Below, piece after piece: positions 11-53,436 of a stretch of 64,000 nucleotides of DNA. A program made the position numbers and the translations under genes. A model generated the notes under the pieces. That model saw only the letters and a list, made by a program, of their open reading frames with translations, searched no databases and was not told the origin of the DNA. Position 1 is the first letter of the stretch; each line of letters begins with the position of its first letter. Origin of the DNA: a virus (taxonomy: Duplodnaviria; Caudoviricetes); IMG/VR virus record IMGVR_UViG_3300018427_002120, positions 5,873-69,872 of that record; one strand, written 5' to 3'.

Positions 11-976
11 GTGAATTGTAATTTGGCACGATACAATAATCAGAACGAAAATTCTCCTGTATTTGATAAGTTCTTGCACGATATTACAGGAGGAGACACT
101 ACATTGCAGGAACGCATTTGGCAGGTTTTTGGGTATTGCTTGACTTCTGATAGAAATGCAAAGGCATATTTCCTGTTTCAAGGTGTTCCGGACTCCGGTA
201 AAAGTATTTTGTGTAACTTATTGGGTGATTTCTATCCGGAGGATAAGGTTTCAGGACTTAATGTACATGCATTGAAGGGAGAATTTGCAATGGGAAATCT
301 CGATTCTGTAGCACTGTGTCTGTCTCCCGACCTGCCTCCTGAGCCCCTGGACACGAAGTCTACCAGTTGTGTTAAGCAGGCAACCGGTAATGATAAGATT
401 TCTGCTGCGGTAAAGCATAAAGGAAACAAGCAGTTCCGTTTCGAAGGTAAATTTATTCTTACCACGAATTATCCTCTGGTAACGGAGGAACCTGATGATG
501 CCTTTATGAGACGTGCGGTGGTCATTCCGTTTTTCTATACGGTTCCTCAAGAAGCAAAGGACGAAGATTTGCTGGATCGTTTAAAGGAAGAGAAGCCTGC
601 TATTGCGTCTAAAGCTTTGGATGCTTATTTCAGACTGCGGGATAATCACTATCATTTTGCAGGAGACTATGCAGTGAATTCGTCTCTTTTGTATCCCGAC
701 GATCTTCTGGGAGGCTCTGAGATTACACCTCTGGTGTACAATTTTTTAATGAGTTATTTTGAGAGAGATCCTGGCGGTCAAGTAGCGATTGGAAATGCCT
801 ACGAAATATTTTCTAACGATATTTCCAACCATTTTACAGAGAAGATGTTTTCTGCATCTTTCCAGCGAATGGCTGAGGAAATCTATGGGGCCAATAAAAT
901 CCGTTCTTATCACGATGGAAAATATAAAAATGCGCGCAGTACCATTGAAGGTATCCGCTTTAAGCATATGAAATAA
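11..976 (+). CDS. P4/D5-family SF3 primase-helicase, C-terminal part (5' truncated by window)
   Basis: Walker A GVPDSGKS, motif C FILTTNYP, AFMRRAVVIPF; frame open to window start. Confidence 0.85.
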   Translation: MNCNLARYNNQNENSPVFDKFLHDITGGDTTLQERIWQVFGYCLTSDRNAKAYFLFQGVPDSGKSILCNLLGDFYPEDKVSGLNVHALKGEFAMGNLDSVALCLSPDLPPEPLDTKSTSCVKQATGNDKISAAVKHKGNKQFRFEGKFILTTNYPLVTEEPDDAFMRRAVVIPFFYTVPQEAKDEDLLDRLKEEKPAIASKALDAYFRLRDNHYHFAGDYAVNSSLLYPDDLLGGSEITPLVYNFLMSYFERDPGGQVAIGNAYEIFSNDISNHFTEKMFSASFQRMAEEIYGANKIRSYHDGKYKNARSTIEGIRFKHMK

Positions 977-1759: not shown

Positions 1760-2437
1760 TCATGTATCCAGCTTCATCATGAAGACTCTCTCCCCAGGCA
1801 TTAGAGGATGATCTTTGAGAGAGGGGTCGGCATCGAACCGTGGTTTTACTTCCAACTCGTCGATTAGAAAACACCGTACCAGGTTAATTCCGTCGATCAT
1901 GTCGGATCCAAGATAATGGATATTGTGAAAGAAGGGAGCATAAACATCGTAATGGGGAATTTTTTTACAGCAGTCGTCTAGCTCTTCTGGATGCATCTGT
2001 CTTGCGATAATCGGAAATTGCTTGTAAGGAAGCTCACGGTGAGTTTTTTCGACGTATTCTCTGGAGAGATCTGCTGCGGGATTGTCTTTGAGCAGGCCAC
2101 GATGTAAGACGGAGTCTAAAGCAACCTCCAGAAGTCTGTTCATACCGGCAATCAGTTTCATAGGTACCTTAAACCATTCATAAATATATTTGTAACAGCC
2201 TTTGAGTTTTTCGACGCTGAGATCCTTCAGTTCCACATTTCCGATAATGGGCATCAAATATCGGATTACATCGTCAGTGAATGCATCGTAGGACGGTCCG
2301 GTGATATGGCATTGTCGGTGGTGTGTGACGTAGTCAGTGAAGAAGGTGTTCAACGGCATCAGAGCGAATTCTTGAGGGGTTACGTTGGTCACATTGGGGT
2401 TCTTTTGCTGTTTGGAGTTTTCGTTCATTTTGGACAT
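1760..2437 (-). CDS. Tyrosine-integrase-like core-binding (SAM-like) domain protein lacking the catalytic domain
   Basis: AGGAGG RBS before ATG 2437; YLMPIIGNVELKDLS and ALDSVLHRGLLKDNPA match integrase CB patterns; catalytic G-x-R position reads GSD; no HxxR/Y motifs. Confidence 0.6.
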   Translation of the reverse strand: MSKMNENSKQQKNPNVTNVTPQEFALMPLNTFFTDYVTHHRQCHITGPSYDAFTDDVIRYLMPIIGNVELKDLSVEKLKGCYKYIYEWFKVPMKLIAGMNRLLEVALDSVLHRGLLKDNPAADLSREYVEKTHRELPYKQFPIIARQMHPEELDDCCKKIPHYDVYAPFFHNIHYLGSDMIDGINLVRCFLIDELEVKPRFDADPSLKDHPLMPGERVFMMKLDT

Positions 2438-2760
2438 AGTAGGTCCTCCTTTTATTTTTAAGAAGTGAAAACAGCTTCTCTTTATTACATTGTTCACGGG
2501 AGAGTAAAAAGCGACTAAATCGTGGGAAATGTGTTTTAATAAAGAACTGAAATTGATGCAAATATTATTGCAATAATCTGAGACGCAATTTGCAGCATGA
2601 GCACATATACTCAATTACCTTGTACTTATCAGACATATTAAGCGAGAAGAGACACCTATGTCAAAATAGCACGATATCAATTGTATATTATCTTCATAGA
2701 AACAACCGCATGGAGCTGTTATGCCCCATGCGGAATTTTTATTTTATGGAGGTAATTCCC

Positions 2761-3861
2761 TTGAAAGAAATGAGATCCTGCAGTGTCTGCGGCAGCCTGC
2801 ATCCGGTGGAGGACTTGACGGAATTTGATGACAGCTATCTTTGCTCTTCCTGTCTGCACACAGAAACCATTTGTTGTCAGCGGTGTGGTGAGCGTCTCTG
2901 GGCAGACAGTAACGCTGGTGATGATGCTACCCATCTTTGTCAGCGCTGCTATGACCGCTATTACACTTCCTGCGAAGACTGTGGCCGTGTCATTTTGACC
3001 GATGATGCTTATTACGTGGATGATGACAGTTACGAAGCCAGATGCTATTCCTGCCATTGCCGCTACGATGACAGCCAAGTAATCCATGACTATTATTACA
3101 AACCGGAACCTGACTTCCTGGGTCAGGGCAGCCGTTGGTTTGGTGTTGAACTGGAAATTGATGATGCGGGAGAACGCAACAGCAATGCTGCGAAGATTGT
3201 GAGTGTAGCTAACCAAGGAGGCGAACACATCTACTGCAAGCATGACGGTTCTCTCAGTGACGGATTTGAAATTGTTACTCATCCCATGACCATCGACTAC
3301 CATATGAACAACATGCCCTGGTCTGCAGTTCTGAATCAGGCAAAGGAAATGGGTTATCTCAGCCACCAGGCCGGAACCTGTGGCCTGCACATCCACATCA
3401 ACCGCAGTGCTTTCGGAAAAACTGAAGCTGAACAGGATGAAGTAATCGCCAGAATCTTATATTTCTTTGAGAAAAACTGGGAGGAACTGCTGAAATTCAG
3501 CCGCCGTACCCATAAGCAGCTGAAACAGTGGGCAGCCAGATATGGTTTAAAGGAGCACCCTAAGGACATTCTGAAGTGTGCTAAGGGTGATCGGGAACGG
3601 TATACCTGCATAAACCTCACTAACTACCATACCATTGAATTCAGAATTTTCCGAGGTACATTGAAACTGAATACGCTTTTAGCCACGCTGCAGCTCATTG
3701 ACAGGATCTGCGACGTGGCTCTTTATCTTTCTGACGAGGAAATCAAGGATATGTCCTGGTCCACTTTCGTAGCCGGCTGTACGCAGCCCGAGCTTGTTCA
3801 GTATTTGAAGGAGCGCAGACTGTACGTAAATGATCCAGTTGTTGCCGAAGCGGAGGTGTAA
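2761..3861 (+). CDS. Putative amidoligase (COOH-NH2 ligase, GCS2-like fold) with N-terminal CxxC zinc ribbons
   Basis: GGAGGT RBS + TTG; six CxxC motifs; FGVELEID, HDGSL, GFEIVTHP, CGLHIHI, RYTCINL, TIEFRIFRGT. Confidence 0.85.
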   Translation: MKEMRSCSVCGSLHPVEDLTEFDDSYLCSSCLHTETICCQRCGERLWADSNAGDDATHLCQRCYDRYYTSCEDCGRVILTDDAYYVDDDSYEARCYSCHCRYDDSQVIHDYYYKPEPDFLGQGSRWFGVELEIDDAGERNSNAAKIVSVANQGGEHIYCKHDGSLSDGFEIVTHPMTIDYHMNNMPWSAVLNQAKEMGYLSHQAGTCGLHIHINRSAFGKTEAEQDEVIARILYFFEKNWEELLKFSRRTHKQLKQWAARYGLKEHPKDILKCAKGDRERYTCINLTNYHTIEFRIFRGTLKLNTLLATLQLIDRICDVALYLSDEEIKDMSWSTFVAGCTQPELVQYLKERRLYVNDPVVAEAEV

Positions 3862-3863
3862 GT

Positions 3864-4787
3864 ATGTGCTGCCTGTTTGGTTTTCATGATTATGGTCACA
3901 AGCTCTCCCGAAAGCAGAGGCACCGGTTGCTGACAATTTTGTCGGCCTCCTGTGAAGAACGCGGCACGGATGCCACTGGTATTTCCTACAATTTTGAGGG
4001 AAAGCAGTATATCTATAAGCGCCCTCTGCCTGCCCATCTGATGTGGTATCGTGTGCCTCTAAGCGCAACTGCGGTTATGGGTCACACCCGAATGACCACC
4101 CAGGGTTCTGCACTGAAAAATGAGAACAACCATCCCTTCCACGGCTGGGCTGGCAATACACGCTTTGCTCTGGCCCACAACGGCATCATTTACAATGACG
4201 AACGGCTCCAGAAGAAACTGAATCTGCCCAAGAGTAGAATCGAGACAGACAGCTATGTGGCGGTACAGTTGCTGGAGCGATTCGATTCCATAGACTTCCG
4301 CGGATTACAGTTTATGGCAGAACAACTGGAAGGATCCTTCACTATTACGGCTCTGACCGAAAGGGACGAGCTGTATTTTGTGAAAGGAAACAACCCCATG
4401 TGTATTTATCACTACCCTGACGCGGGCATCTATGTATATGCCAGTACGGAGGAAATTCTGAAAAAGGCCATGCTGAAAGCATTGCTGCCTTTAGGAAAAG
4501 CAGAAAAGGTACATATGGTCAGCGGAGAAATGCTTCGGATCGATGCCAGAGGCAAAATCACCCGCAGCCAGTTTGATGACAGCAACATCTATCCCGGCTT
4601 TTCCACTGATTGGCATTACTGGGCCAACTACGATCCGGTGAGACGGCCATATGCAGATGATTCCAGCTATCTGGATGATTTGAAAGCAATTGCGGTCTTC
4701 TATGGCCTGTATCCAGAAGATATTGATGCTCTGCTTGAGGATGGCATGGATCCGATGGAGATTGAAGAGATGCTGTATTGTGGATAG
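3864..4787 (+). CDS. Class II (Ntn) glutamine amidotransferase
   Basis: N-terminal MCC nucleophile, RGTDATG, GHTRMTT, NNHPF, AHNGII, ETDSYV; starts 2 nt after the amidoligase stop. Confidence 0.9.
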   Translation: MCCLFGFHDYGHKLSRKQRHRLLTILSASCEERGTDATGISYNFEGKQYIYKRPLPAHLMWYRVPLSATAVMGHTRMTTQGSALKNENNHPFHGWAGNTRFALAHNGIIYNDERLQKKLNLPKSRIETDSYVAVQLLERFDSIDFRGLQFMAEQLEGSFTITALTERDELYFVKGNNPMCIYHYPDAGIYVYASTEEILKKAMLKALLPLGKAEKVHMVSGEMLRIDARGKITRSQFDDSNIYPGFSTDWHYWANYDPVRRPYADDSSYLDDLKAIAVFYGLYPEDIDALLEDGMDPMEIEEMLYCG

Positions 4788-5779: not shown

Positions 5780-6073
5780 ATGGAAAAGCTAATAGAAGTA
5801 TTACAGCAGTATTTCGCGCAGAATCCTCCTGCTTATGGAGATGCAGAATCTGTGTTGGATATGCTGTTTTGGCATTACACGGAGTATAATCAGATTGACA
5901 ATGAGAAAATCAAAACGCAATTTGCAAAGCTGAGAGACTACTTGAGCCTCCCACCTGAGGAATATGACGAAGTGTTTTACATAGTTGGCGATCTCTGCAT
6001 AGAACATAGCCGATTGGCATTTCGGGAGGGTATGCGACTGGTATTGGCGCTGCTGCAGGAGTTGAAATGCTGA
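5780..6073 (+). CDS. Small alpha-helical hypothetical protein (possibly DUF6809-like)
   Basis: AGGAGAGG RBS; C-terminal AFREGMRL resembles the F-x-x-G-x-R-L ending of the 49416 ORF. Confidence 0.6.
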   Translation: MEKLIEVLQQYFAQNPPAYGDAESVLDMLFWHYTEYNQIDNEKIKTQFAKLRDYLSLPPEEYDEVFYIVGDLCIEHSRLAFREGMRLVLALLQELKC

Positions 6074-6898: not shown

Positions 6899-7690
6899 TT
6901 ATAGTTCTAATTTTATCTCGTACCGTAGTGACTTTGATAAATCTGTCAAAATGAATAATTCTTGTTTGTTTTCTTTGCTCCACCCTTTTTGAGGTGCTAG
7001 ACGATTAAAATATATTACTCCGTGTCCATGTGTTCCACTTAGGTATTCTTCGTGAATTTCGGGAGGGGGTGCTTTGCCAATACAACCTTCGATATGATAA
7101 TCGATTGCTCTCAGTTTTTCGGGTCGGAAGATATAGTGACTTTTGTAGTCCATTAAAATATCTTGGGCATCTGCAATAACGGATCTATAATCACCTTCAT
7201 ATAAAAGATATGCCAATTCTACAACTGCAGGAGGTTCGAATCCTTCCAATTGTAATGTGGCAGGGTAATTAAACGATATGGTTATTTGGAAGAGTTTTGT
7301 GTCGAAATCCCTGGATATAGTCAATGCGATGAATCGTTTGTCCTTATTTTCTTTGTCAAAAGTCATACCCTTGGCTTTATTATATGCCTCAGCGAGGAAG
7401 TAGAGGTTATCAATACAACAGTTGTGACTTTCGTTATCCATATGGTCAATAACAAAGCCTTTTTCCTTCATTTCATTGCAGATCTCTTCTCCGTACCACT
7501 TTTTCATCACATACGAGTGCAATGTCCCCAATCTAGCATTATGTGGATAACGATTCTTTTGTAATCCCCAGGTTGCGCTTTTTATTTCATCGACGTAATC
7601 GTCACGTATCGTTGCCTGAGCAATAAAATTCCACTCTGGACGGGATATATAGATGGTGTTGTCAATAACGGAAAACTTATTTTTGCTCAT
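6899..7690 (-). CDS. HNH endonuclease domain protein
   Basis: FVIDHMDNESHNCCIDNL...YNKAK HNH_3-like motif; AGGAGA RBS. Confidence 0.7.
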   Translation of the reverse strand: MSKNKFSVIDNTIYISRPEWNFIAQATIRDDYVDEIKSATWGLQKNRYPHNARLGTLHSYVMKKWYGEEICNEMKEKGFVIDHMDNESHNCCIDNLYFLAEAYNKAKGMTFDKENKDKRFIALTISRDFDTKLFQITISFNYPATLQLEGFEPPAVVELAYLLYEGDYRSVIADAQDILMDYKSHYIFRPEKLRAIDYHIEGCIGKAPPPEIHEEYLSGTHGHGVIYFNRLAPQKGWSKENKQELFILTDLSKSLRYEIKLEL

Positions 7691-7717
7691 GTTTTTCTCC
7701 TGTCTTTACCTGCGTTA

Positions 7718-9508
7718 TTATAGTTTGTCAATAATTGCCTGAAGATTATCCACAAACCAATCGCACTGGAGTTTTTGCACACAGTCCAGTTGGTGTGTAT
7801 TAATTCCTGCCTTAATACCATCACGTAACTGTATAAGCGCGTCCCTATCTGCGGATAAAAACTGACCTATATTAACAGAACGATATGTGCTGCCAAATGC
7901 ATATCGAATTTCGTCCATTTGATCCGGTGCACATGTCAGGAACATTTCAACCATCCGAGAGATATCTAGTAATGCTGCCAGTTTTCCGGTTTCAAAATGA
8001 TCCTTACTGTTTTCAAACTGCTGCCTAAATGTTGTTGCCTCATCTGGTGTATAATTGAAATTGGGAAGAAATTTATCTCCATCCAAGGCTTTTTCCATTT
8101 GATCCCTGAGTACATTGTATTCGTCTTGGAGAGATGTGTCATTACTGTGCAGTGAAATTCTGAACAGTAGGCTGGTATCTATTTCATCTCCCCTTCCGCG
8201 AAGATTTTCTACCAATAAAGATTTTGCAACGGAAATATCGATTCCATAATAATGCTTTATGTACAACAGATGAACAGCCAGTGGACCATAGTCAAAGAAA
8301 GAAATATCCGAAGGATCGGCAAGCCTTTTCTGAATAGACTCAACAGCGGATCGCAGTTGAGATTCAGAAACACAATAGTAATTCCCAATGGTGATAAGAT
8401 CTGGATCATCTGCTGTTTTGGTCTTATCGTAAAGTCGCAGTGTTTCGAGAGCTTTTTCTGCAACCGGTATCTTATCGCGTTTTACTACATGATGATGCAG
8501 ATAATCATAGCAGAAGCGGAACAGTGGATATTTCTCAGAACTTAACTCAAGGGAGAATACATCTGCTCCAGTCCAAACCATCTTCATGCCGGCTTTGATG
8601 CGCATAGAAAAATGAATGATTCCATAGAAGATGCAGGTCAGGAAATCTTCATTGTAGGTACCTTCCAGGGCCTGATAAATATCCACCGTTTTTTGGCACG
8701 CATAAATGAAGGATCTCAGATTATAGTTCTTTTGATCTCCCATAATCTGAAAGATCTCTTTCGCGTGACTATCATCCGCAAAATAATGGAGCTTTTCATC
8801 CCCAAAGGAGTCAATGATTTGCTTAATCGCAGCAATATAATCGCCACAATAAACAATGGTATCGCTGATTGTTTTTTCCTTTGTTTTTAGGTATTCCAAT
8901 GTTTCCAGAGTATATACTTTATCCTTTTTCTTTGGTTTTTCATCAATAATATCCAAAGACTCCTCGTTGCTGGTTTCAGTTGTTTCGGGTTCGTAACTCA
9001 GGATTTCCTCTTCATTTGCAACCAACAGTACCTTCACACCGTCCTGTTCTACCAGATTATTCACATAACCCATCAGTTCCATCAAGTTAATTTGGGTACG
9101 TTCAATATCTTCCAAAATAATTAATTTGCCGGAAAGATTAATTGACTGATACAGTTGCTGCCATGCACTGTCGGAGGTACCCAATTCAATCCCAAGGTGA
9201 CTGGAAACGCCCTTGATTATGGTTGTAGCGATAAGTGTTCCAGCGTTACCTATTTCTGTTTTTGGCTTTAGTACATTTATCCGAGTTTCTAAATAAATGC
9301 TTTTGCTGATATCATTTACACAGGACAAACCATACAGTGAAATGAGAATACAATCATGGTTTCCTTGTTCTTTAAGAAACGGAATTAGTTCATTTTTAAT
9401 GTAATGGCTTTTACCAGTTCCCCATTCACCAGTGAGCATAATTGCGCTTTTGGTTTTATCCATCTCAACATAGTGCTTCAGATATCTACTTAGTTCCAGA
9501 TTTGTCAT
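7718..9508 (-). CDS. KAP-family P-loop NTPase
   Basis: MLTGEWGTGKSH Walker A, ISLYGL, LIILEDIER Walker B, YLKTKEKTI; start uncertain (9508/9514/9523). Confidence 0.85.
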   Translation of the reverse strand: MTNLELSRYLKHYVEMDKTKSAIMLTGEWGTGKSHYIKNELIPFLKEQGNHDCILISLYGLSCVNDISKSIYLETRINVLKPKTEIGNAGTLIATTIIKGVSSHLGIELGTSDSAWQQLYQSINLSGKLIILEDIERTQINLMELMGYVNNLVEQDGVKVLLVANEEEILSYEPETTETSNEESLDIIDEKPKKKDKVYTLETLEYLKTKEKTISDTIVYCGDYIAAIKQIIDSFGDEKLHYFADDSHAKEIFQIMGDQKNYNLRSFIYACQKTVDIYQALEGTYNEDFLTCIFYGIIHFSMRIKAGMKMVWTGADVFSLELSSEKYPLFRFCYDYLHHHVVKRDKIPVAEKALETLRLYDKTKTADDPDLITIGNYYCVSESQLRSAVESIQKRLADPSDISFFDYGPLAVHLLYIKHYYGIDISVAKSLLVENLRGRGDEIDTSLLFRISLHSNDTSLQDEYNVLRDQMEKALDGDKFLPNFNYTPDEATTFRQQFENSKDHFETGKLAALLDISRMVEMFLTCAPDQMDEIRYAFGSTYRSVNIGQFLSADRDALIQLRDGIKAGINTHQLDCVQKLQCDWFVDNLQAIIDKL

Positions 9509-43506: not shown

Positions 43507-43590
43507 ATGGGCTACCGAAAGGTTGGCTACATGGAGCAGCTCTGGTACATCTTCAAGCACATGATTAGGCGGCTGCTCCACAGGAGGTGA
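43507..43590 (+). CDS. 27-aa peptide preceding HNH
   Basis: GGAGG RBS; MGYRKVGYMEQLWYIFKHMIRRLLHRR. Confidence 0.5.
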   Translation: MGYRKVGYMEQLWYIFKHMIRRLLHRR

Positions 43591-43595
43591 ATTCA

Positions 43596-43943
43596 ATGCC
43601 CAAAAGGCCAAAACGACCCTGCTCCTATCCCGGCTGTCCCAAGCTGACAGATGGACAGTATTGTGAGGACCATGCTGCTGTTGCACGGCGGCAGTACAAC
43701 AAATACGAACGCGCCCCGGATATCAACAAGAAGTATGGTCGGGCATGGAAACGCATCCGGGATCGCCATGCCGCCCAACATCCTCTTTGTGAACGGTGCC
43801 TGGAAGAAGGGCGACTCGTTCCCATGGAAGAAGTCCACCACAAGGTGCCTGTTTCCAAGGGTGGCACCCACGCAAGGGACAATCTCATGTCTTTATGCCG
43901 TTCTTGTCACAACAAGATTCATCATGAAATTGGTGACCGCTGA
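43596..43943 (+). CDS. Terminase-associated HNH endonuclease
   Basis: CSYPGC, LCERC, VHHKVP..GG.H..DNLMSLCRSCHNKIH. Confidence 0.93.
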   Translation: MPKRPKRPCSYPGCPKLTDGQYCEDHAAVARRQYNKYERAPDINKKYGRAWKRIRDRHAAQHPLCERCLEEGRLVPMEEVHHKVPVSKGGTHARDNLMSLCRSCHNKIHHEIGDR

Positions 43944-44062: not shown

Positions 44063-44602
44063 ATGGGCCAAAGAGGACCCAAACCCGGCTCCGGTGGCAG
44101 ACCGAAAAAAGCCATCGCAGATAAAATTACGGACGGCAATCCCGGCAAGCGTCCGCTGACTGTCATTGATTTCAAAGACAGCGTGGCTGACCTGGAAGGT
44201 CAGGATATGCCCCAACCCAAGGAGTTCCTTTCTGCCAGACAGAAAGACGGCTCCACGCTCTGTGCTGCAGAGATTTATGAAAATGTGTGGAAATGGCTGC
44301 GTGACCGTGGGTGTGCCGCCATCGTCTCTCCGGACCTGATTGAACGGTATGCTCTGGCCAGTGCAAGATGGATTCAGTGTGAGTCCATTACCAGTGAAGT
44401 TGGTTTCCTAGCAAAGCATCCCACTACCGGGGCAGCGATCCAGTCTCCCTATGTTTCCATTGCCAATCAGTACATGACCCAGGCAAACCGACTGTGGTCT
44501 GAGATTTTCCAGATCGTCCGGGAGAACTGTACCGGCGATTACACTGGGGCCAGTCCCGAAGATGATGTCATGGAGCGGCTGCTCCGTGCAAGGAAAGGAT
44601 GA
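44063..44602 (+). CDS. terS: Terminase small subunit (P27 family)
   Basis: MGQRGPKP, GNPGKRPL, QSPYVSIA. Confidence 0.9.
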   Translation: MGQRGPKPGSGGRPKKAIADKITDGNPGKRPLTVIDFKDSVADLEGQDMPQPKEFLSARQKDGSTLCAAEIYENVWKWLRDRGCAAIVSPDLIERYALASARWIQCESITSEVGFLAKHPTTGAAIQSPYVSIANQYMTQANRLWSEIFQIVRENCTGDYTGASPEDDVMERLLRARKG

Positions 44603-44606
44603 TTTC

Positions 44607-45392
44607 ATGTTTGAAAAAGTAAACCCGGCGCATCCTGATAAGCTGGCAGACCGTATTGCCGGTGCTATCGTGGACATCGCCTACGAAACCCAAATCGATC
44701 CCAAAATCGCCGTGGAGGTGCTGATCGGTCATGGTGTTTGCCATGCCATCATCGAAACCTCCGCCGTTTTGAATCTGCGGAAAATCAAGGATGCCATTCA
44801 TCGCATTGCCGGCAATGTCCGTCCCAATGTGGTTATCGTTCCTCAGGACAGGCATCTGGCCCGCAATCAGGAAGAAACCGTCCGCTGCGGCGACAACGGC
44901 ATCTTCAAGGGTATGCCCATGACCCGGGAGCAGCATATGCTGTGCAGCTTCGCCTACGATATTTACAGCCGGTATCCCTATGATGGTAAGTACATCATGG
45001 ACGGAAACCGGCTTGTTATCTGTCAGAGCAACGCAGAGGCAGAGGCAATCCGCAAAACATATCCCTTTGCGGAAATCAATCCCCTGGGTGCCTGGACCGG
45101 CGGCACGGATGTGGACACCGGTGCTACCAACCGAAAGCTGGGCAGCGATATGGGTGATTCCGTTACCGGCGGTGGTCTCCACGGTAAGGACCTCAGCAAA
45201 GCAGATGTCAGTGTCAATATCTATGCGTTTCTCAAGGCCCAGGAAACCGGACAGCCTGTGGAACTGAGCTGCGCCATCGGTGATGAATTCATCGACGGTA
45301 TTCCCTACGAAGAAATCGTAGAAACGGCGAGGGGCTTCATCCATTCTATCGGTGGATTTGAGAAGTTCGCTGAGTGGGGTCTGGTATGGTAA
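44607..45392 (+). CDS. metK: Compact phage-type S-adenosylmethionine synthetase
   Basis: HPDKLADRIA, GDNGIF, DTGATNRKL, GGGLHGKDLSKAD. Confidence 0.88.
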   Translation: MFEKVNPAHPDKLADRIAGAIVDIAYETQIDPKIAVEVLIGHGVCHAIIETSAVLNLRKIKDAIHRIAGNVRPNVVIVPQDRHLARNQEETVRCGDNGIFKGMPMTREQHMLCSFAYDIYSRYPYDGKYIMDGNRLVICQSNAEAEAIRKTYPFAEINPLGAWTGGTDVDTGATNRKLGSDMGDSVTGGGLHGKDLSKADVSVNIYAFLKAQETGQPVELSCAIGDEFIDGIPYEEIVETARGFIHSIGGFEKFAEWGLVW

Positions 45393-46630
45393 TTGAAAAG
45401 AAAAATACGGCAGATCTTCTGCCTGCTGACTACAATCCCCGTAAGGATCTGAAACCCGGTGATCTGGAATACGAAAAGCTGAAACGCTCCATTGAACAGT
45501 TCGGTTATGTGGAGCCGGTCATCTGGAACAAGGCAACCGGCAGGGTTGTGGGTGGTCACCAGCGGCTGAAGGTGCTGATTGATATGGGACATTCCCAGGT
45601 GGACTGTGTCGTGGTGGATCTGTCTGAGGAAAAGGAAAAGGCACTGAATGTGGCGCTGAACAAGATCAGCGGCGACTGGGATAAGGACAAGCTGTCTCTG
45701 CTGATCGCTGACCTGCAGGGTGCCGATTTCGATGTTTCCCTCACGGGCTTTGACCCTGCGGAAATCGATGATCTTTTCAAAGACACCCTCAAGGATGGTG
45801 TCAAGGAAGATGACTTTGATGTGGATGCGGAACTGGAAAAGCCAACTATTACGAAATCCGGAGACATCTGGACCCTGGGGCGGCACCGTCTGATCTGCGG
45901 TGACAGCACCAAAGCGGAAACCTACGAGCAGCTGCTCGATGGCAAGAAGGTCAACCTGGTCATTACCGACCCTCCCTACAATGTCAATTACGAAGGTTCT
46001 GCCGGTAAGATTAAAAATGACAATATGGCCAACGATGCCTTCTATCAGTTCCTGCTGGATGCCTACACCCAGATGCATTCTGCCATGGCGGATGACGCAT
46101 CTATCTATGTGTTCCACGCAGACACTGAGGGTCTGAATTTCCGCAGGGCATTTGTCGATGCGGGATTCTATTTGTCCGGGTGCTGTATCTGGAAAAAACA
46201 GTCTCTGGTGCTGGGCCGGTCGCCCTATCAGTGGCAGCATGAGCCTTGTCTGTATGGTTGGAAGAAAAACGGAAAGCATCAGTGGTACACAGGTCGGAAG
46301 GAAACCACCATCTGGGAATTCGATAAACCCAGGAAAAATGGTGACCATCCTACCATGAAACCCATTCCGCTGTTGGCATACCCCATCATGAATTCTTCCA
46401 TGACCAACTGTCTGGTACTGGACCCCTTCGGCGGTTCCGGCTCCACCCTGATTGCCTGTGAGCAGACCGACCGCATTTGCTATACCATCGAACTGGACGA
46501 AAAATTCTGCGATGTTATCGTAAAGCGGTACATCGAGCAGGTAGGCAGTGATGCCGGTGTGACCGTGCAGCGGGACGGTGTATCCTTTTCCTATGCTGAG
46601 ATTACAGCACTGGAGGATACCAATGAGTAA
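45386..46630 (+). CDS. ParB-N + N6/N4 DNA methyltransferase
   Basis: YNPRK, VVGGHQRL; ITDPPY, HPTMKP, LDPFGGSGST. Confidence 0.93.
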   Translation: MVIEKKNTADLLPADYNPRKDLKPGDLEYEKLKRSIEQFGYVEPVIWNKATGRVVGGHQRLKVLIDMGHSQVDCVVVDLSEEKEKALNVALNKISGDWDKDKLSLLIADLQGADFDVSLTGFDPAEIDDLFKDTLKDGVKEDDFDVDAELEKPTITKSGDIWTLGRHRLICGDSTKAETYEQLLDGKKVNLVITDPPYNVNYEGSAGKIKNDNMANDAFYQFLLDAYTQMHSAMADDASIYVFHADTEGLNFRRAFVDAGFYLSGCCIWKKQSLVLGRSPYQWQHEPCLYGWKKNGKHQWYTGRKETTIWEFDKPRKNGDHPTMKPIPLLAYPIMNSSMTNCLVLDPFGGSGSTLIACEQTDRICYTIELDEKFCDVIVKRYIEQVGSDAGVTVQRDGVSFSYAEITALEDTNE

Positions 46631-48359
46631 TACAAAACTGACCCTCGGAAGCCTCTTTGACGGCTCCGGGGGATTTCCTTTGGCAGGCCTTCTCTCCGGA
46701 ATCACTCCTGTGTGGGCATCGGAAATCGAACCGTTTCCCATTCGGGTCACTACCAGGCGACTGCCTTTCATGAAACATTACGGCGACATCACTGCCATGG
46801 ATGGCGGCAGGATCGAGCCGGTGGACATTATTACCTTCGGGTCACCCTGCACCAATCTTTCTGTGGCCGGTCGCCGGGAAGGCCTTGACGGAAAACAGTC
46901 CAGTCTGTTTTTTGAAGCCATCCGAATCATAAAAGAAATGAGGTGTGCCACCAATGGCAAATACCCACGATGGATCTGTTGGGAAAATGTCCCCGGCGCA
47001 TTCTCTTCGAATGCCGGACGGGACTTCCAGGCAGTCCTCAACGCGGTCATCGGCATCGTCCAGGATTGTCCCCCAGTGCCTATGCCTGAGAAAAACAAAT
47101 GGCCCCAGTCCGATGTTTACATGGGAGACGGATGGAGCGTTGCGTACAGAACTCTTGACGCGCAATATTGGGGCCTGGCCCAACGCAGAAAACGCATCTT
47201 CCTTGTCGGCGACCTTACAGGTCAATGTGCCGGAAAAGTATTATTTGAGTCCGAAGGCCTGTCGCGGTATTCTGCGGAGGGCTTCCGCGCGTGGCAAAGA
47301 ACTTCCGGAGGTGTTGAGACTTGCGCTGGAACGACAGTCCTTGGCATAGACGGATACAACGGCACCGTTTCTCCTGTCGCGGCTACCCTTGGTGTGAATT
47401 GTGGAATGTCTACCGGAAGAAACGGTGTCGTTTTGAATGACCAAGGAGGCAACCGTATGGATGTGACCCATGAGGTTACCTGCACACTCCGGGCAGAAGC
47501 ACACCATCCTCCGGTGATTCTGGATACACCGGCAATGGTTTATGAAAATCACAGTCAGGACACCCGGTATGTGGGTCCCCTGGAAGTTGCACCTACCGTG
47601 GCCGCCACTTATGGCACCGGAGGAAACAATCAGCCGTTTGTGATCCGGGAGAACGATAATCTGCCGAAAGCATTCGGTATCTGTTCCATGGATAGCCGGG
47701 GCATGAAATCCGACAATCCCAATGTGGGATTTTACGAAGCGAAGGTAACCCGTACCATCGATGGCAACGGTGGAAATCCTATCTGCCACCAGGGCGGTAT
47801 CGCGGTGGTTTCCTACGGCATTGACAGAGCCGCTTTCAATCAGGGAAAAAACGCAAAGTACAATATCGCCGTGGAAGAAGAACTGCAGCCTACGCTGGTA
47901 TCGAAAGGCCCCGGTGCGGTGGCCGCACCAACCTACAGTGCCAGCAAATCCACATTCTTTTTGAATGTGGTGCAGGAGGCTGCAAACACGCTGGTTGCCA
48001 CGGACTACAAGGACCCGCCACTCATCAATGACGGTAATGATCCCAATTATTCCGTCCGGAGACTTACTCCCACAGAGTGCGCCAGACTGCAGGGATTCCC
48101 GGACTGGTGGTGTGCCGGCCTTGGCACGGACGATCCGACTATGGACGATATTCGTTTCTGGTACGATGTCTTTGAAACCCACCGGAAGGTTACGGGTACC
48201 TCCTCCAAGGCTAAGTCCATCCGGCAGATCACCAAATGGTTGCGAGATCCTCATTCGGATGCCGCTGAGTACAAGATGTGGGGCAACGGTGTGGCTTTGC
48301 CCTGCGTATTCTTTGTGCTGGCCGGTATTGTGTTCAATACACAATCTGACGGCACATAA
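46623..48359 (+). CDS. C5 cytosine DNA methyltransferase with long variable region
   Basis: SLFDGSGG, FGSPC, WENVPG, LDAQYWG.AQRRKR, RRLTPTECARLQGFPD, WGNGV. Confidence 0.95.
   Translation: MSNTKLTLGSLFDGSGGFPLAGLLSGITPVWASEIEPFPIRVTTRRLPFMKHYGDITAMDGGRIEPVDIITFGSPCTNLSVAGRREGLDGKQSSLFFEAIRIIKEMRCATNGKYPRWICWENVPGAFSSNAGRDFQAVLNAVIGIVQDCPPVPMPEKNKWPQSDVYMGDGWSVAYRTLDAQYWGLAQRRKRIFLVGDLTGQCAGKVLFESEGLSRYSAEGFRAWQRTSGGVETCAGTTVLGIDGYNGTVSPVAATLGVNCGMSTGRNGVVLNDQGGNRMDVTHEVTCTLRAEAHHPPVILDTPAMVYENHSQDTRYVGPLEVAPTVAATYGTGGNNQPFVIRENDNLPKAFGICSMDSRGMKSDNPNVGFYEAKVTRTIDGNGGNPICHQGGIAVVSYGIDRAAFNQGKNAKYNIAVEEELQPTLVSKGPGAVAAPTYSASKSTFFLNVVQEAANTLVATDYKDPPLINDGNDPNYSVRRLTPTECARLQGFPDWWCAGLGTDDPTMDDIRFWYDVFETHRKVTGTSSKAKSIRQITKWLRDPHSDAAEYKMWGNGVALPCVFFVLAGIVFNTQSDGT
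46954..47349 (+). CDS. Alternative-frame ORF nested in the C5 MTase (EcoHK31I beta-subunit-like)
   Basis: GAGGTG RBS 8 nt before ATG; SSLSATLQ..VPEKYYLSPKACRGILRRA..RGK.LP. Confidence 0.6.
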   Translation: MANTHDGSVGKMSPAHSLRMPDGTSRQSSTRSSASSRIVPQCLCLRKTNGPSPMFTWETDGALRTELLTRNIGAWPNAENASSLSATLQVNVPEKYYLSPKACRGILRRASARGKELPEVLRLALERQSLA

Positions 48360-50502: not shown

Positions 50503-52104
50503 ATCCGGAAACTGAAAAAGTACAAGCCTACCAGATTCCTAGCGAAGGGCTCCTACTACGATAAGAACGCTGCCGATTATGCGGTAGCCTTTATCGAAAG
50601 TCTGTGCCATACAAAAGGAACCTGGGCAAGAAAGCCTTTTGAACTGATTGACTGGCAAGAGCAGATCATCCGGGATATTTTTGGAACTCTGAAATCCAAC
50701 GGTTACCGGCAGTTCAATACGGCCTATATCGAAATCCCTAAGAAACAGGGCAAATCGGAACTGGCGGCTGCGGTGGCACTGCTTTTGACCTGCGGCGACG
50801 GCGAAGAACGCGCGGAGGTATATGGCTGTGCAGCAGATCGCCAGCAGGCATCCATCGTATTCAATGTGGCTGCGGATATGGTTCGTATGTGTCCGGCACT
50901 CTCCAAACGAGTAAAAATCCTAGATTCCCAGAAACGGCTGATTTATCAGCCAACGGGCAGTATCTACCAGGTGCTTTCCGCTGACGTCGGCAACAAGCAT
51001 GGTTTCAACACCCATGGTGTTGTTTTTGATGAGCTACATACCCAGCCGAACCGGAAACTGTTTGATGTTATGACCAAAGGCTCCGGTGATGCCCGTATGC
51101 AGCCCCTTTACTTCCTGATCACTACGGCGGGCAACGATACCAAATCCATCTGCTACGAGATCCATCAGAAAGCAAAAGACATCATCGAAGGCAGAAAAAT
51201 TGACCACACCTTTTACCCGGTGATCTACGGCGCGGATGAAGCGGACGATTGGACAGATCCTAAAATCTGGAAGAAGGCCAATCCCTCTCTGGGCATCACA
51301 GTGGGCATCGATAAGGTCAGAGATGCCTGTGAGTCTGCCAAGCAGAATCCCGGTGAGGAGAACGCCTTCCGGCAACTTCGTTTGAACCAGTGGGTCAAAC
51401 AGGCGATCCGCTGGATGCCGATGCATCTGTGGGACAAATGCTCTCTGGCCGTTTCCGAGGAGGATCTGGAAGGCCGGGTCTGTTACGGTGGCCTTGACCT
51501 TTCCAGCACAACGGACATCACGGCATTTGTGTTGGTATTCCCGCCCGGTGATGAAGATGACAAATACGTCATTCTGCCGTACTTCTGGATTCCGGAGGAC
51601 AACCTGGATCTGCGTGTCCGCCGGGATCATGTGCCCTATGATGTGTGGGAGCGGCAGGGATTCCTGCAAACCACCGAGGGCAATGTAGTCCACTATGGCT
51701 ACATTGAGCGGTTCATCGAAAGGCTCGGTGAACGGTTCAATATCCGTGAAATCGCCTTTGACCGTTGGGGTGCTGTGCAGATGGTGCAGAACCTGGAAGG
51801 CATGGGCTTTACGGTGGTGCCCTTCGGGCAGGGCTTCAAGGATATGTCTCCGCCCACCAAGGAATTGATGAAACTGGTGCTGGAGGAGCGGATCGCCCAC
51901 GGTGGACACCCGGTACTGCGGTGGATGATGGACAACATCTTCATCCGCACCGACCCTGCCGGTAACATCAAGCCGGACAAAGAAAAATCCACAGAGAAGA
52001 TCGACGGTGCCGTTGCTACCATCATGGCCCTTGACCGGGCGATCCGCTGTGGAAATGATATCGGTGCTTCGGTCTACGATGACCGGGGCATTTTCTTTAT
52101 CTAA
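50503..52104 (+). CDS. terL: Terminase large subunit, non-canonical ATC start
   Basis: AGGAGGTGA RBS; RKLKKY N-terminus; PKKQGKS, DELH, ITTAG, GLDLSST, KIDGAVA. Confidence 0.93.
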   Translation: MRKLKKYKPTRFLAKGSYYDKNAADYAVAFIESLCHTKGTWARKPFELIDWQEQIIRDIFGTLKSNGYRQFNTAYIEIPKKQGKSELAAAVALLLTCGDGEERAEVYGCAADRQQASIVFNVAADMVRMCPALSKRVKILDSQKRLIYQPTGSIYQVLSADVGNKHGFNTHGVVFDELHTQPNRKLFDVMTKGSGDARMQPLYFLITTAGNDTKSICYEIHQKAKDIIEGRKIDHTFYPVIYGADEADDWTDPKIWKKANPSLGITVGIDKVRDACESAKQNPGEENAFRQLRLNQWVKQAIRWMPMHLWDKCSLAVSEEDLEGRVCYGGLDLSSTTDITAFVLVFPPGDEDDKYVILPYFWIPEDNLDLRVRRDHVPYDVWERQGFLQTTEGNVVHYGYIERFIERLGERFNIREIAFDRWGAVQMVQNLEGMGFTVVPFGQGFKDMSPPTKELMKLVLEERIAHGGHPVLRWMMDNIFIRTDPAGNIKPDKEKSTEKIDGAVATIMALDRAIRCGNDIGASVYDDRGIFFI

Positions 52105-52122: not shown

Positions 52123-53436
52123 ATGAGCCTTTTTACCGGTCTCTTCAAATCCAGAGACAAGCCCCAAAATCGCACTACCGGTAGTGCCTACACCTTTTTT
52201 ATGGGCGGCACTACCGCAGGCAAAACCGTCACAGAACGATCGGCCATGCAGATGACGGCAGTTTACTCCTGTGTCCGCATCCTGGCAGAAGCTGTAGCCG
52301 GGTTACCGCTGCATCTGTATCGGTATAACGGAGACGGCGGCAAGGAAAAAGCCATCGACCATCCGCTGTACCGGCTGCTCCATGACGAACCCAACCCGGA
52401 AATGAGTTCCTTCGTATTCCGGGAGACCCTCATGACCCATCTGCTCCTCTGGGGCAATGCCTATGCCCAGGTGATCCGCAACGGTAAGAATGAGGTCATT
52501 GCTTTGTATCCGCTTATGCCCAACCGAATGAGTGTGGATCGGGATGATCAGGGCCATCTCTACTACACCTACTACCGTGGCCCGGACGAGGCCATCAAGA
52601 GCAAGGAATACGCGGTAACGCTGCAGCCCAGCGATGTGCTTCATATCCCCGGTCTTGGTTTTGACGGCCTGGTGGGATACAGTCCCATCGCCATGGCGAA
52701 GAATGCCATCGGTATGGCCATCGCCTGTGAGGAATACGGTGCTAAGTTCTTCGCCAACGGTGCCACTCCCGGCGGCATCCTGGAGCATCCCGGTACCATT
52801 AAGGACCCTCAGAGAGTCCGGGAAAGCTGGCAGTCCGCTTTCGGCGGTAGCGGCAATTCCAACAAGGTAGCTGTTCTGGAAGAAGGCATGAAATACACAC
52901 CTATTTCCATTTCTCCGGAACAGGCGCAGTTCCTGGAAACCCGAAAATTCCAAATCAACGAAATTGCTCGAATTTTCCGAGTGCCGCCCCACATGGTCGG
53001 TGATCTGGAAAAGTCGAGCTTTTCCAATATTGAGCAGCAGTCTCTGGAGTTCGTGAAATACACCCTGGACCCCTGGGTGGTTCGGTGGGAGCAGAGTATC
53101 CAACGCTCTCTTTTGTCTTTTGACGAAAAGAACCGGTATTTTGTGAAGTTCAATCTGGAGGGACTGCTGCGGGGCGACTATCAGAGCCGGATGAACGGCT
53201 ATGCCATCGGTCGCCAAAATGGTTGGATGTCCGCCAACGATATCCGGGAACTGGAGAATCTGGATCGAATTCCTGCAGAGGAAGGCGGCGATCTGTACCT
53301 CATTAATGGCAATATGCTTCCGCTACAACATGCGGGTGCTTTTGCAAATATCACATCGGAAGGAAAGGAGAACGAAACCAGTGAAGAACAAGAAGTTCTG
53401 GCAGTGGAAAAACCAAACAGCAGACGGCGAGTCTGA
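52123..53436 (+). CDS. Portal protein (HK97 family)
   Basis: AVYSCVRILAE, LLWGNAY, GLVGYSPI, IARIFRVPP. Confidence 0.95.
   Translation: MSLFTGLFKSRDKPQNRTTGSAYTFFMGGTTAGKTVTERSAMQMTAVYSCVRILAEAVAGLPLHLYRYNGDGGKEKAIDHPLYRLLHDEPNPEMSSFVFRETLMTHLLLWGNAYAQVIRNGKNEVIALYPLMPNRMSVDRDDQGHLYYTYYRGPDEAIKSKEYAVTLQPSDVLHIPGLGFDGLVGYSPIAMAKNAIGMAIACEEYGAKFFANGATPGGILEHPGTIKDPQRVRESWQSAFGGSGNSNKVAVLEEGMKYTPISISPEQAQFLETRKFQINEIARIFRVPPHMVGDLEKSSFSNIEQQSLEFVKYTLDPWVVRWEQSIQRSLLSFDEKNRYFVKFNLEGLLRGDYQSRMNGYAIGRQNGWMSANDIRELENLDRIPAEEGGDLYLINGNMLPLQHAGAFANITSEGKENETSEEQEVLAVEKPNSRRRV

Follow-up and report, generated by a model that had tools for sequence, protein, structure and literature searches.

The 64,000-nucleotide stretch analyzed here by computational means (the window) covers positions 5,873 to 69,872 of IMGVR_UViG_3300018427_002120, a 69,872-base IMG/VR provirus record assigned to the Caudoviricetes, and it carries a gene for a 578-residue C5 DNA cytosine methyltransferase (MTase) within which a second open reading frame (ORF) of 131 codons is wholly nested. 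The main ORF is itself unbroken from motif I to motif X. The first-pass annotation had described this ORF as a +1-frame gene with a ribosome-binding site, GAGGTG, 8 nt before an ATG at position 46954 and with a characteristic C-terminal motif, and both the coordinates and the motif were confirmed (Table 1): the distance between the two starts (46954 minus 46623) is 331 nt, which places the nested ORF in the +1 frame. Throughout this work the host frame is called frame a, the nested +1 frame is called frame b, and the nested product is called X (not to be confused with motif X of the methyltransferase).

Selection and start signals of the nested gene

When X was used as a tblastn query, matches were found in 140 phage and 531 plasmid records, and every match examined lay in the +1 frame of an annotated methyltransferase (Streptococcus phage Javan261, an Oscillospiraceae phage, a P1-like E. 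coli plasmid, Caulobacter phage DMCA, Mycobacterium phage Dallas, Vibrio phage PS10B.1, Burkholderia phage Bcep22, phage P1, and Lactococcus phage CHPC1175). A profile search with X recovered 4862 representative clusters at E ≤ 0.001. With 160 further related loci taken from IMG/VR and GTDB genomes, the sample comprised 166 loci, and dereplication at 90% nucleotide identity gave 97 sequences. Taking the N-terminal half of the enzyme as the reference, the C-terminal motif of X was in the +1 frame in 166 of 166 loci, with frame b open over 123-570 codons (median 136) and its upstream bound at an equal relative position in 153 of them. Between the conserved boundaries of X not a single frame-b stop was present in the 97 dereplicated relatives, whereas in the remainder of the same genes this frame contains 3.7 stops per 100 codons. 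The probability of finding 131 open codons by chance is about 0.007 per sequence.

To see which frame is selected where, nucleotide diversity was measured separately for the three codon positions across the alignment. Over codons 1-190 of the main chain the third base of frame a was the most variable, which is the usual signature of selection on frame a. At codons 191-200 all three positions were constrained, and here the motif VIII strand of frame a coincides with the S-T-L-S-Q-I-L sequence of frame b. From codon 201 to codon 240 variation was greatest at the first base of frame a, that is, the third (wobble) base of frame b; frame-b residues in this stretch (Y, Y, L, S, K, A, C, G, I, L, R, R, A and others) reached a conservation of 0.9-0.96, whereas that of the frame-a residues over the linker was often 0.3-0.7. 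Even the apparent frame-a motif V/I-L-F-E-x-E-G ("VLFESEG" in the window) is a by-product of the frame-b sequence K-Y-Y-L-S-x-K-A ("KYYLSPKA") read one base earlier. What selection maintains in this stretch of DNA is therefore the final ~50 residues of X, and frame a needs only to remain open across it. Over residues 1-77 of X, frame a is the dominant constraint, but some positions are held for X: Trp57 is maintained by NTG codons whichever residue (Met, Val, or Leu) frame a encodes, and L43/L45 are maintained by the use of CCT for a frame-a proline in 84-89 of 97 sequences.

These data bear directly on the simplest explanation of the locus, namely that the X ORF is a by-product, open and conserved only through the host frame and giving rise to no protein. 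In agreement with such a view, residues 1-77 of X largely follow the host frame passively (GKMSP, for instance, derives from WENVPG), and there is no Pfam family for X. Past motif VIII, however, it is the host frame that is poorly conserved and the variation falls on the wobble position of frame b, the synonymous choices of the host frame are bent toward the start, the Shine-Dalgarno sequence, and individual residues of X, and the pattern recurs across phyla. The codon-phase switch rules out a by-product ORF, an explanation to which we attach next to no probability. We conclude that X is a real protein-coding gene under purifying selection rather than a chance ORF and that, in the sequences compared, the nested pattern is conserved across phyla.

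The beginning of X is likewise written into the host frame. The frame-a residue at codon 111 is variable (Asn, Asp, His, or Gly), but the codon is always AAT, GAT, or CAT, which supplies an ATG in frame b, or GGT, which supplies a GTG; where the residue is Asn, Asp, or His, the codon is NAT in 85 of 85 cases and never NAC, although T-ending codons make up only 52% of the codons for these residues in the rest of the genes. Arg107 is encoded by AGG in 90 of 93 sequences, compared with an AGG share of 14.6% among the arginine codons elsewhere in these genes, and AGG after ATG makes GAGG, often GAGGTG, the GAGG lying 10 nt upstream of the start of X. An ATG or a GTG is present at the start site of X in 95 of 97 dereplicated sequences, and a Shine-Dalgarno core in 94 of 97, with identical spacing in 90. 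A start codon that can be either ATG or GTG but keeps its position behind a Shine-Dalgarno sequence is typical of an initiation site and is not expected of a slippery site, and we infer that X is translated and that it is initiated separately, from its own signals inside the host ORF. The view of the first-pass annotation that this is a genuine nested gene is thus borne out by both the frame-b wobble switch and the start signals.

The enzyme segment that X resembles

X appears to consist of two parts. When X was modeled with AlphaFold2 (AF2) on an alignment of 46 sequences, residues 1-40 had a predicted local distance difference test (pLDDT) score below 50, helices were predicted at residues 78-90, 100-113, and 119-130, and pLDDT was ~72-91 across residues 91-131. 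The leader (residues 1-77) is rich in Ser, Thr, Arg, and Pro and is mainly predicted to be disordered, with a weak β-hairpin at residues 42-60.

Searches for longer proteins revealed three kinds of longer X-containing form, and in all three forms the X coding sequence overlaps that of motifs VI-VIII in the +1 frame. In the split form, which is a large class, the beginning of the protein is exactly that of X, and the same frame then runs on through the target-recognition domain (TRD), motif IX, and motif X. Motifs I-VIII are encoded by an ORF of their own, with which the X-led ORF, lying in its +1 frame, shares 400-460 nt (for example, locus L004, ORFs 2054-2800 and 2400-3566, and locus L005, 2613-4704); one cluster of such proteins has 333 member sequences. 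The second form is circularly permuted as well as split. In locus L172 (2817-4167) one ORF (2817-3347) holds motifs III-VIII only, and the overlapping X-led ORF in the +1 frame (2992-4167) encodes X, the TRD, motifs IX and X, and then motifs I-II, ending ~40 residues past motif I; proteins P0282, P0291, P0302, P0313, and P0362 are also permuted. The third form comprises frame-switched fusions of ~240 residues, in which the N-terminal half of the enzyme passes into the X frame at many different points (P0123, P0130, P0154, P0161, P0169, and P0206). Some of these clusters recur (P0161 in 19 contigs), and the fusions are probably indels or sequencing/assembly errors. Some X-fused relatives are close to the window protein, the C-terminal sequence of P0152 being nearly the same when compared by eye. 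Because many relatives have X covalently attached to the remainder of the enzyme, free X is expected to work with the enzyme and not alone, and this is the main argument for a role of X in the methyltransferase.

The longer forms could also be taken to mean that ribosomes reach the X domain from the host frame by programmed +1 frameshifting, which in the window would produce a 242-residue fusion of the N-terminal half with X and in the split relatives a full-length canonical enzyme. Indeed, a +1 shift just past motif VIII in L004, L005, and L172 would yield a complete single-chain enzyme, many in-frame fusions of ~240 residues are found among the predicted proteins, and Shine-Dalgarno-like sequences are able to stimulate frameshifting. 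Nevertheless, these fusions change frame at many points, the pattern expected of random indels or of errors in sequencing. In all loci, frame b also has ~80 open codons ahead of the conserved domain, and a shift past motif VIII would have no need of them. The alternation of ATG and GTG at a fixed site, with the Shine-Dalgarno sequence 8-10 nt upstream, is the signature of initiation, no obvious slippery run was seen past motif VIII on a reading by eye (a systematic search was not made), and the product in the window would be devoid of motifs IX and X. We therefore regard frameshifting as quite improbable. A slip, in transcription or in translation, at the A-rich sequence GAGAAAAACAAA (~47090-47101), which was suggested by one metagenomic fusion, was rejected, because the other fusions switch elsewhere and the run consists of five A's only.

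The segment to which X corresponds was sought by comparing both frames with the E. coli Dcm enzyme. The main-chain profile aligned to Dcm residues 164-283 (hhalign E 2.4e-8) and ended at motif VIII, the last aligned residue being G196. The X profile aligned to Dcm residues 282-338, directly past motif VIII, with an hhalign E value of 0.0054 (for one pairwise comparison) and a probability of 6.8%, S-T-L-S-Q-I-L ... V-P-E-K-Y-Y-L-S-P of X falling on V-T-L-A-Q-L-L ... V-E-A-K-Y-I-L-T-P of Dcm. A natural X-fused relative, P0152 (409 residues), was then folded by AF2, which gave a confident model for the X domain and the C-terminal part but not for the TRD, and in a structure search with this model (VIA-align) all matches to C5 MTases began at model residue 78-80, just past motif VIII, with Z values of 3.1-5.2. 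M.HhaI (2uyc_A) was matched with a Z of 4.7 and a root mean square deviation of 3.8 over 83 aligned residues (model 78..386 to chain 189..305), EhMeth (3qv2) with a Z of 5.2 from chain residue 189, Dnmt2 from chain residue 196, and Shigella Dcm (3lx6) from chain residues 307-309. The registers obtained from structure and from sequence are identical, with Thr-Leu of X placed on Thr309-Leu310 of Dcm.

These comparisons provide moderate evidence that the helical domain of X corresponds to the canonical segment connecting motif VIII with the small domain and that this segment is absent from the main chain; the evidence is moderate because the scores are low and the sequence and structure lines are partly dependent on each other. 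A reading of YYLSPKAC..IL in X as a diverged motif IX (RRLTPTEC..L) was rejected, since both hhalign and the structure alignments place this segment right after motif VIII. Moreover, the host ORF was confirmed to hold its own motif IX (479-494) and motif X (GNG, 554-556), and X is thus not a donor of motif IX. The first-pass annotation had taken the C-terminal motif of X as typical of the β subunit of M.EcoHK31I, but that subunit carries motif IX, whereas X shows none and aligns past motif VIII of Dcm and M.HhaI. It had also proposed that the nested protein is an accessory or specificity-modulating subunit rather than the donor of a missing piece, and this order is probably to be reversed, because the main chain is without the post-motif-VIII segment and X carries one.

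The reading that we favor, with moderate confidence, is that X is translated separately and supplies the post-motif-VIII segment to the main chain in trans. X would be translated from the internal Shine-Dalgarno sequence and ATG, while the main polypeptide, reading the DNA of the X domain in the other frame, would form a passive linker there and would hence lack the segment. The C-terminal domain of X would then dock on the main chain beside motif IX and complete the small (target-recognition) domain, so that X would bind the main chain, would be needed for activity, and would make the enzyme a two-polypeptide heterodimer. Such an arrangement could have arisen in two steps: a frameshift after motif VIII would have split the ancestral gene, with an upstream start in the new frame rescuing the second part (the split form), and a second frameshift behind the segment would have brought the two large parts together again, with the segment remaining by itself in X (the window form).

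Several observations weigh against the supply of this segment by X. The resemblance to the canonical segment is weak, with the low hhalign probability given above and Z values below the safe level of the tool. X profiles found no match in Pfam (E up to 10, with 36 members), in NCBIfam, or among PDB sequences (E up to 10), and X folded alone gave no Foldseek match at E ≤ 0.001. In addition, ~30 codons would encode consecutive ancestral segments in both frames, for which a single frameshift offers no simple explanation, and residues 1-77 of X are given no role in the window copy. Searches elsewhere returned a weak PHROGs match of X to a 139-residue "DNA methyltransferase" family (E 0.007) and, in the ESM Atlas, only viral "hypothetical protein" clusters, none of them with a Pfam family.

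If X is an obligatory subunit, as the favored reading would have it, many "orphan" C5 methyltransferases of phages and integrative and conjugative elements would be two-polypeptide enzymes, and the recoded or codon-optimized expression of the annotated ORF would silently destroy the second subunit, which bears on REBASE-style characterization, on methylome prediction, and on the engineering of phages against restriction. Long-lived dual coding, of which this family is a natural example, is also rare; the partner frames exchange roles here, the pieces have been re-joined in three ways, and the family should be useful for studies of overlapping-gene evolution and of protein fragment complementation.

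A clamp-like motif in relatives of X

The leader of X raises a question of its own. Many X proteins, free or fused, carry G-Q-[MLV]-[ST]-[LI]-F-D or I-Q-L-S-L-F-G at residues 4-12, a feature found in 45 distinct representative clusters among the sequences collected. The strict motif was present in 53 of 283 N termini, against 0.1 expected from shuffles, although many of these come from one clade, and its Gln is invariant while the third base of the codon varies. Variants are Q-L-D-L-F in Mycobacterium phage Dallas, Q-L-S-L-F in Lactococcus phage CHPC1175, and Q-M-T-L-F in ORF14 of the pneumococcal phage MM1, and motif-bearing N termini are encoded, for example, at L004:2400-2440, L172:3001-3045, L255:7631-7670 (MM1 ORF14), and L167:1564-1600. 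The bacterial β-clamp-binding consensus is reportedly of the QL[SD]LF type, Q-[LMV]-[SDT]-[LM]-F, which the N-terminal motif of the relatives resembles, and these proteins are therefore candidates for clamp binding. Clamp-binding motifs are usually located at a disordered terminus, as is the motif of the X relatives.

X might accordingly be made and functional but accessory to the methyltransferase, as a tether or regulator whose C-terminal domain docks on the enzyme or the DNA and whose leader recruits a partner, which in many relatives would be the host β sliding clamp. The excess of clamp-like N termini with their invariant Gln, the predicted disorder of the leader, and the weakness of the similarity between X and the canonical segment all speak for this role. 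On the other hand, X of the window lacks the clamp motif and is fully conserved all the same, many genomes carry X as a fusion with the TRD and motifs IX-X, and the two frames tile Dcm. Taken together, the fused forms, the tiling of Dcm, and the conservation of X without a clamp motif point to X as an integral part of the enzyme, and a purely accessory X seems to us rather unlikely, even though the accessory and subunit readings are not exclusive of each other.

The two could in fact be combined in a bipartite adaptor, which we put forward as a tentative possibility for this very large methyltransferase family of phages and integrative and conjugative elements. The C-terminal domain of X would be the missing post-motif-VIII segment, and the disordered leader would, in many lineages, bind the host β sliding clamp and thereby tie phage cytosine methylation to the replication fork; through the overlap of the genes, enzyme and adaptor would moreover be synthesized in a coupled manner, and the window copy would represent a lineage in which the motif was lost. 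In the window the clamp pentapeptide was not found in the N-terminal sequence of X (MANTHDGSVGK), and as only a degenerate remnant is present at the aligned position, the clamp idea fails to explain the window copy. If correct for the other lineages, the adaptor would be the bacterial-virus counterpart of DNMT1 binding PCNA, and the clamp motif would constitute a new coupling of DNA modification to replication in bacteria.

Known systems and the methyltransferase locus

An overlap of this kind has been remarked on before. A pair of C5-MTase ORFs showing "total overlap ... in different reading frames" was described in Streptococcus thermophilus phages of the 5093 group by McDonnell et al. 2017 (PMC5601072), who cite the same overlap for the pneumococcal phage MM1 and Tn5252, without an analysis of selection, role, mechanism, or breadth beyond streptococcal elements. 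In the MM1 record, ORF14 (7631-8056, 141 residues) is annotated inside ORF13 (7480-8637, 385 residues, a full C5 MTase), with an offset of 151 nt (7631 minus 7480), that is, in the +1 frame. The X profile A3 aligned to MM1 ORF14 over 133 columns with an hhalign probability of 98% and an E value of 2.3e-13, which indicates homology. The ORF13/ORF14 pair of this Streptococcus pneumoniae phage thus resembles the window in having a small, wholly nested +1 ORF with a homologous product, but ORF14 ends earlier, without the GILRRA..RGK.LP..L..AL helices, and starts with the QMTLF motif. With this hhalign match, MM1 ORF14 and not the β subunit of M.EcoHK31I is taken as the closest real relative of X.

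The analogy with M.EcoHK31I drawn by the first-pass annotation holds in principle but not in type. In that system a small polypeptide encoded in another frame wholly within the gene of the large subunit is required, together with the latter, for activity, and β has motif IX, which α lacks (PMC2836561; PMC3404938). X of the window is also a small polypeptide encoded in another frame inside an MTase gene, but here the main chain has motif IX and none was seen in X, which is set apart from β on the basis of the published description. M.AquI is split in the variable region, with motifs I-VIII on α and the distal variable region plus motifs IX-X on β (PMC3404938). This is the layout of the split relatives L004 and L005, there with overlapping ORFs, but their β-type ORFs begin ~80 codons upstream, inside the α coding sequence. 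In the window the M.AquI-type separation of motifs I-VIII from motifs IX-X was not found, the main chain being unbroken and only a segment of ~55 residues being detached. C5 MTases such as M.SssI, M.MpeI, and M.HhaI tolerate bisection in the proximal variable region, their fragments reassembling (PMC3404938), and circular permutants of M.MpeI and M.SssI have reportedly been made (PMC5944983). L172 is a natural counterpart of these, both permuted and split, although the pieces that involve X differ from the engineered fragments in being natural, conserved, and overlapping in two frames.

Nested out-of-frame genes are routinely missed in annotation. Among ~60 phage records inspected that have an annotation under the X match, dmt of P1 and P7 included, no second feature was found, MM1 being the exception, and the nested dmt ORF is annotated in 0 of 18 records of P1-family phages. 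In P1 dmt (L170:1916-2410) the same nested +1 ORF (1931-2410) spans ~160 codons, with GGAG 7 nt before an ATG at 1931, and it is likewise present in P7, SJ46, RCS47, and hundreds of P1-like plasmids. In Mycobacterium phage Dallas (L167:1386-2834) the methylase is annotated as two pieces (281 residues, and 66 residues in +1) followed by an HNH endonuclease gene, and an X-like ORF (1558-2037) lies inside the first piece. We believe that the new elements here are the evidence for selection and for separate initiation, the breadth across phyla including P1 dmt, the three architectures, the post-motif-VIII assignment, and the clamp-motif lead.

The gene content of the window places the C5 methyltransferase in a packaging-proximal module of the phage (Table 1). 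The host gene matches the PF00145 profile and carries motifs I, IV (PC), VI (ENV), VIII (QxRxR), IX, and X in order, the motif residues being invariant in alignment A5. A variable region of ~280 residues (47350-48050) separates the linker from motif IX.

Table 1. Positions of the nested gene, of the host methyltransferase gene and its motifs, and of neighboring genes in the window
Feature	Position	Strand	Remarks
Nested gene X, 131 residues plus stop, frame b (+1)	46954..47349	+	ATG 46954-46956, TAG 47347-47349
TGA bounding X upstream in frame b	46939..46941	+	made by frame-a codons ATG-AGG (Met106-Arg107)
Shine-Dalgarno sequence of X, GAGGTG	46940..46945	+	8 nt before ATG; from frame-a Arg107 = AGG and Cys108 = TGT
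X residues 1-77, leader	46954..47184	+	overprinted on motif VI-VIII coding sequence; AF2 pLDDT 42-65
X residues 78-131, conserved helical domain	47185..47346	+	S-x-LS-x-x-LQ..VPEKYYLSPKAC-x-GILRRA..RGKELP..L..ALE
Host gene, C5 DNA cytosine methyltransferase, 578 residues, frame a	46623..48359	+	PF00145 E 1.4e-37; TIGR00675 E 2.4e-31
Motif IV Pro-Cys (P75-C76), catalytic cysteine, frame a	46845..46850	+	invariant in alignment A5
Motif VI Glu-Asn-Val (E121-V123), frame a	46983..46991	+	frame-b reading of these bases is G-K-M-S of X
Motif VIII QRRKR (Q187-R191), frame a	47181..47195	+	
Frame-a linker, residues 196-243	47208..47351	+	over X conserved domain; poorly conserved
Motif IX RRLTPTECARLQGFPD (residues 479-494), frame a	48057..48104	+	
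Motif X GNGVALP (residues 554-560; GNG = 554-556), frame a	48282..48302	+	
HNH endonuclease	43587-43943		
Small terminase	44063-44602		
S-adenosylmethionine (SAM)-synthetase N-terminal domain protein, 276 residues	44562-45392		PF00438 E 8.9e-9
ParB_N and N6/N4 DNA methyltransferase fusion	45374..46630	+	PF01555 E 6.6e-25; PF02195 E 2.6e-4
Large terminase	50773-52104		preceded by two small genes
Portal	52123-53436		

Upstream of the host gene, the SAM-synthetase-like product corresponds to the N-terminal domain of that enzyme only, and its gene is located between the small terminase gene and both methyltransferase genes. The ATG of the C5 methyltransferase overlaps the stop of the upstream ParB-N6/N4 MTase gene at 46623-46630 (ATGAGTAA), an arrangement that suggests translational coupling of the two methylases, and the start and stop of two methylase genes overlap likewise in loci L001 and L002.

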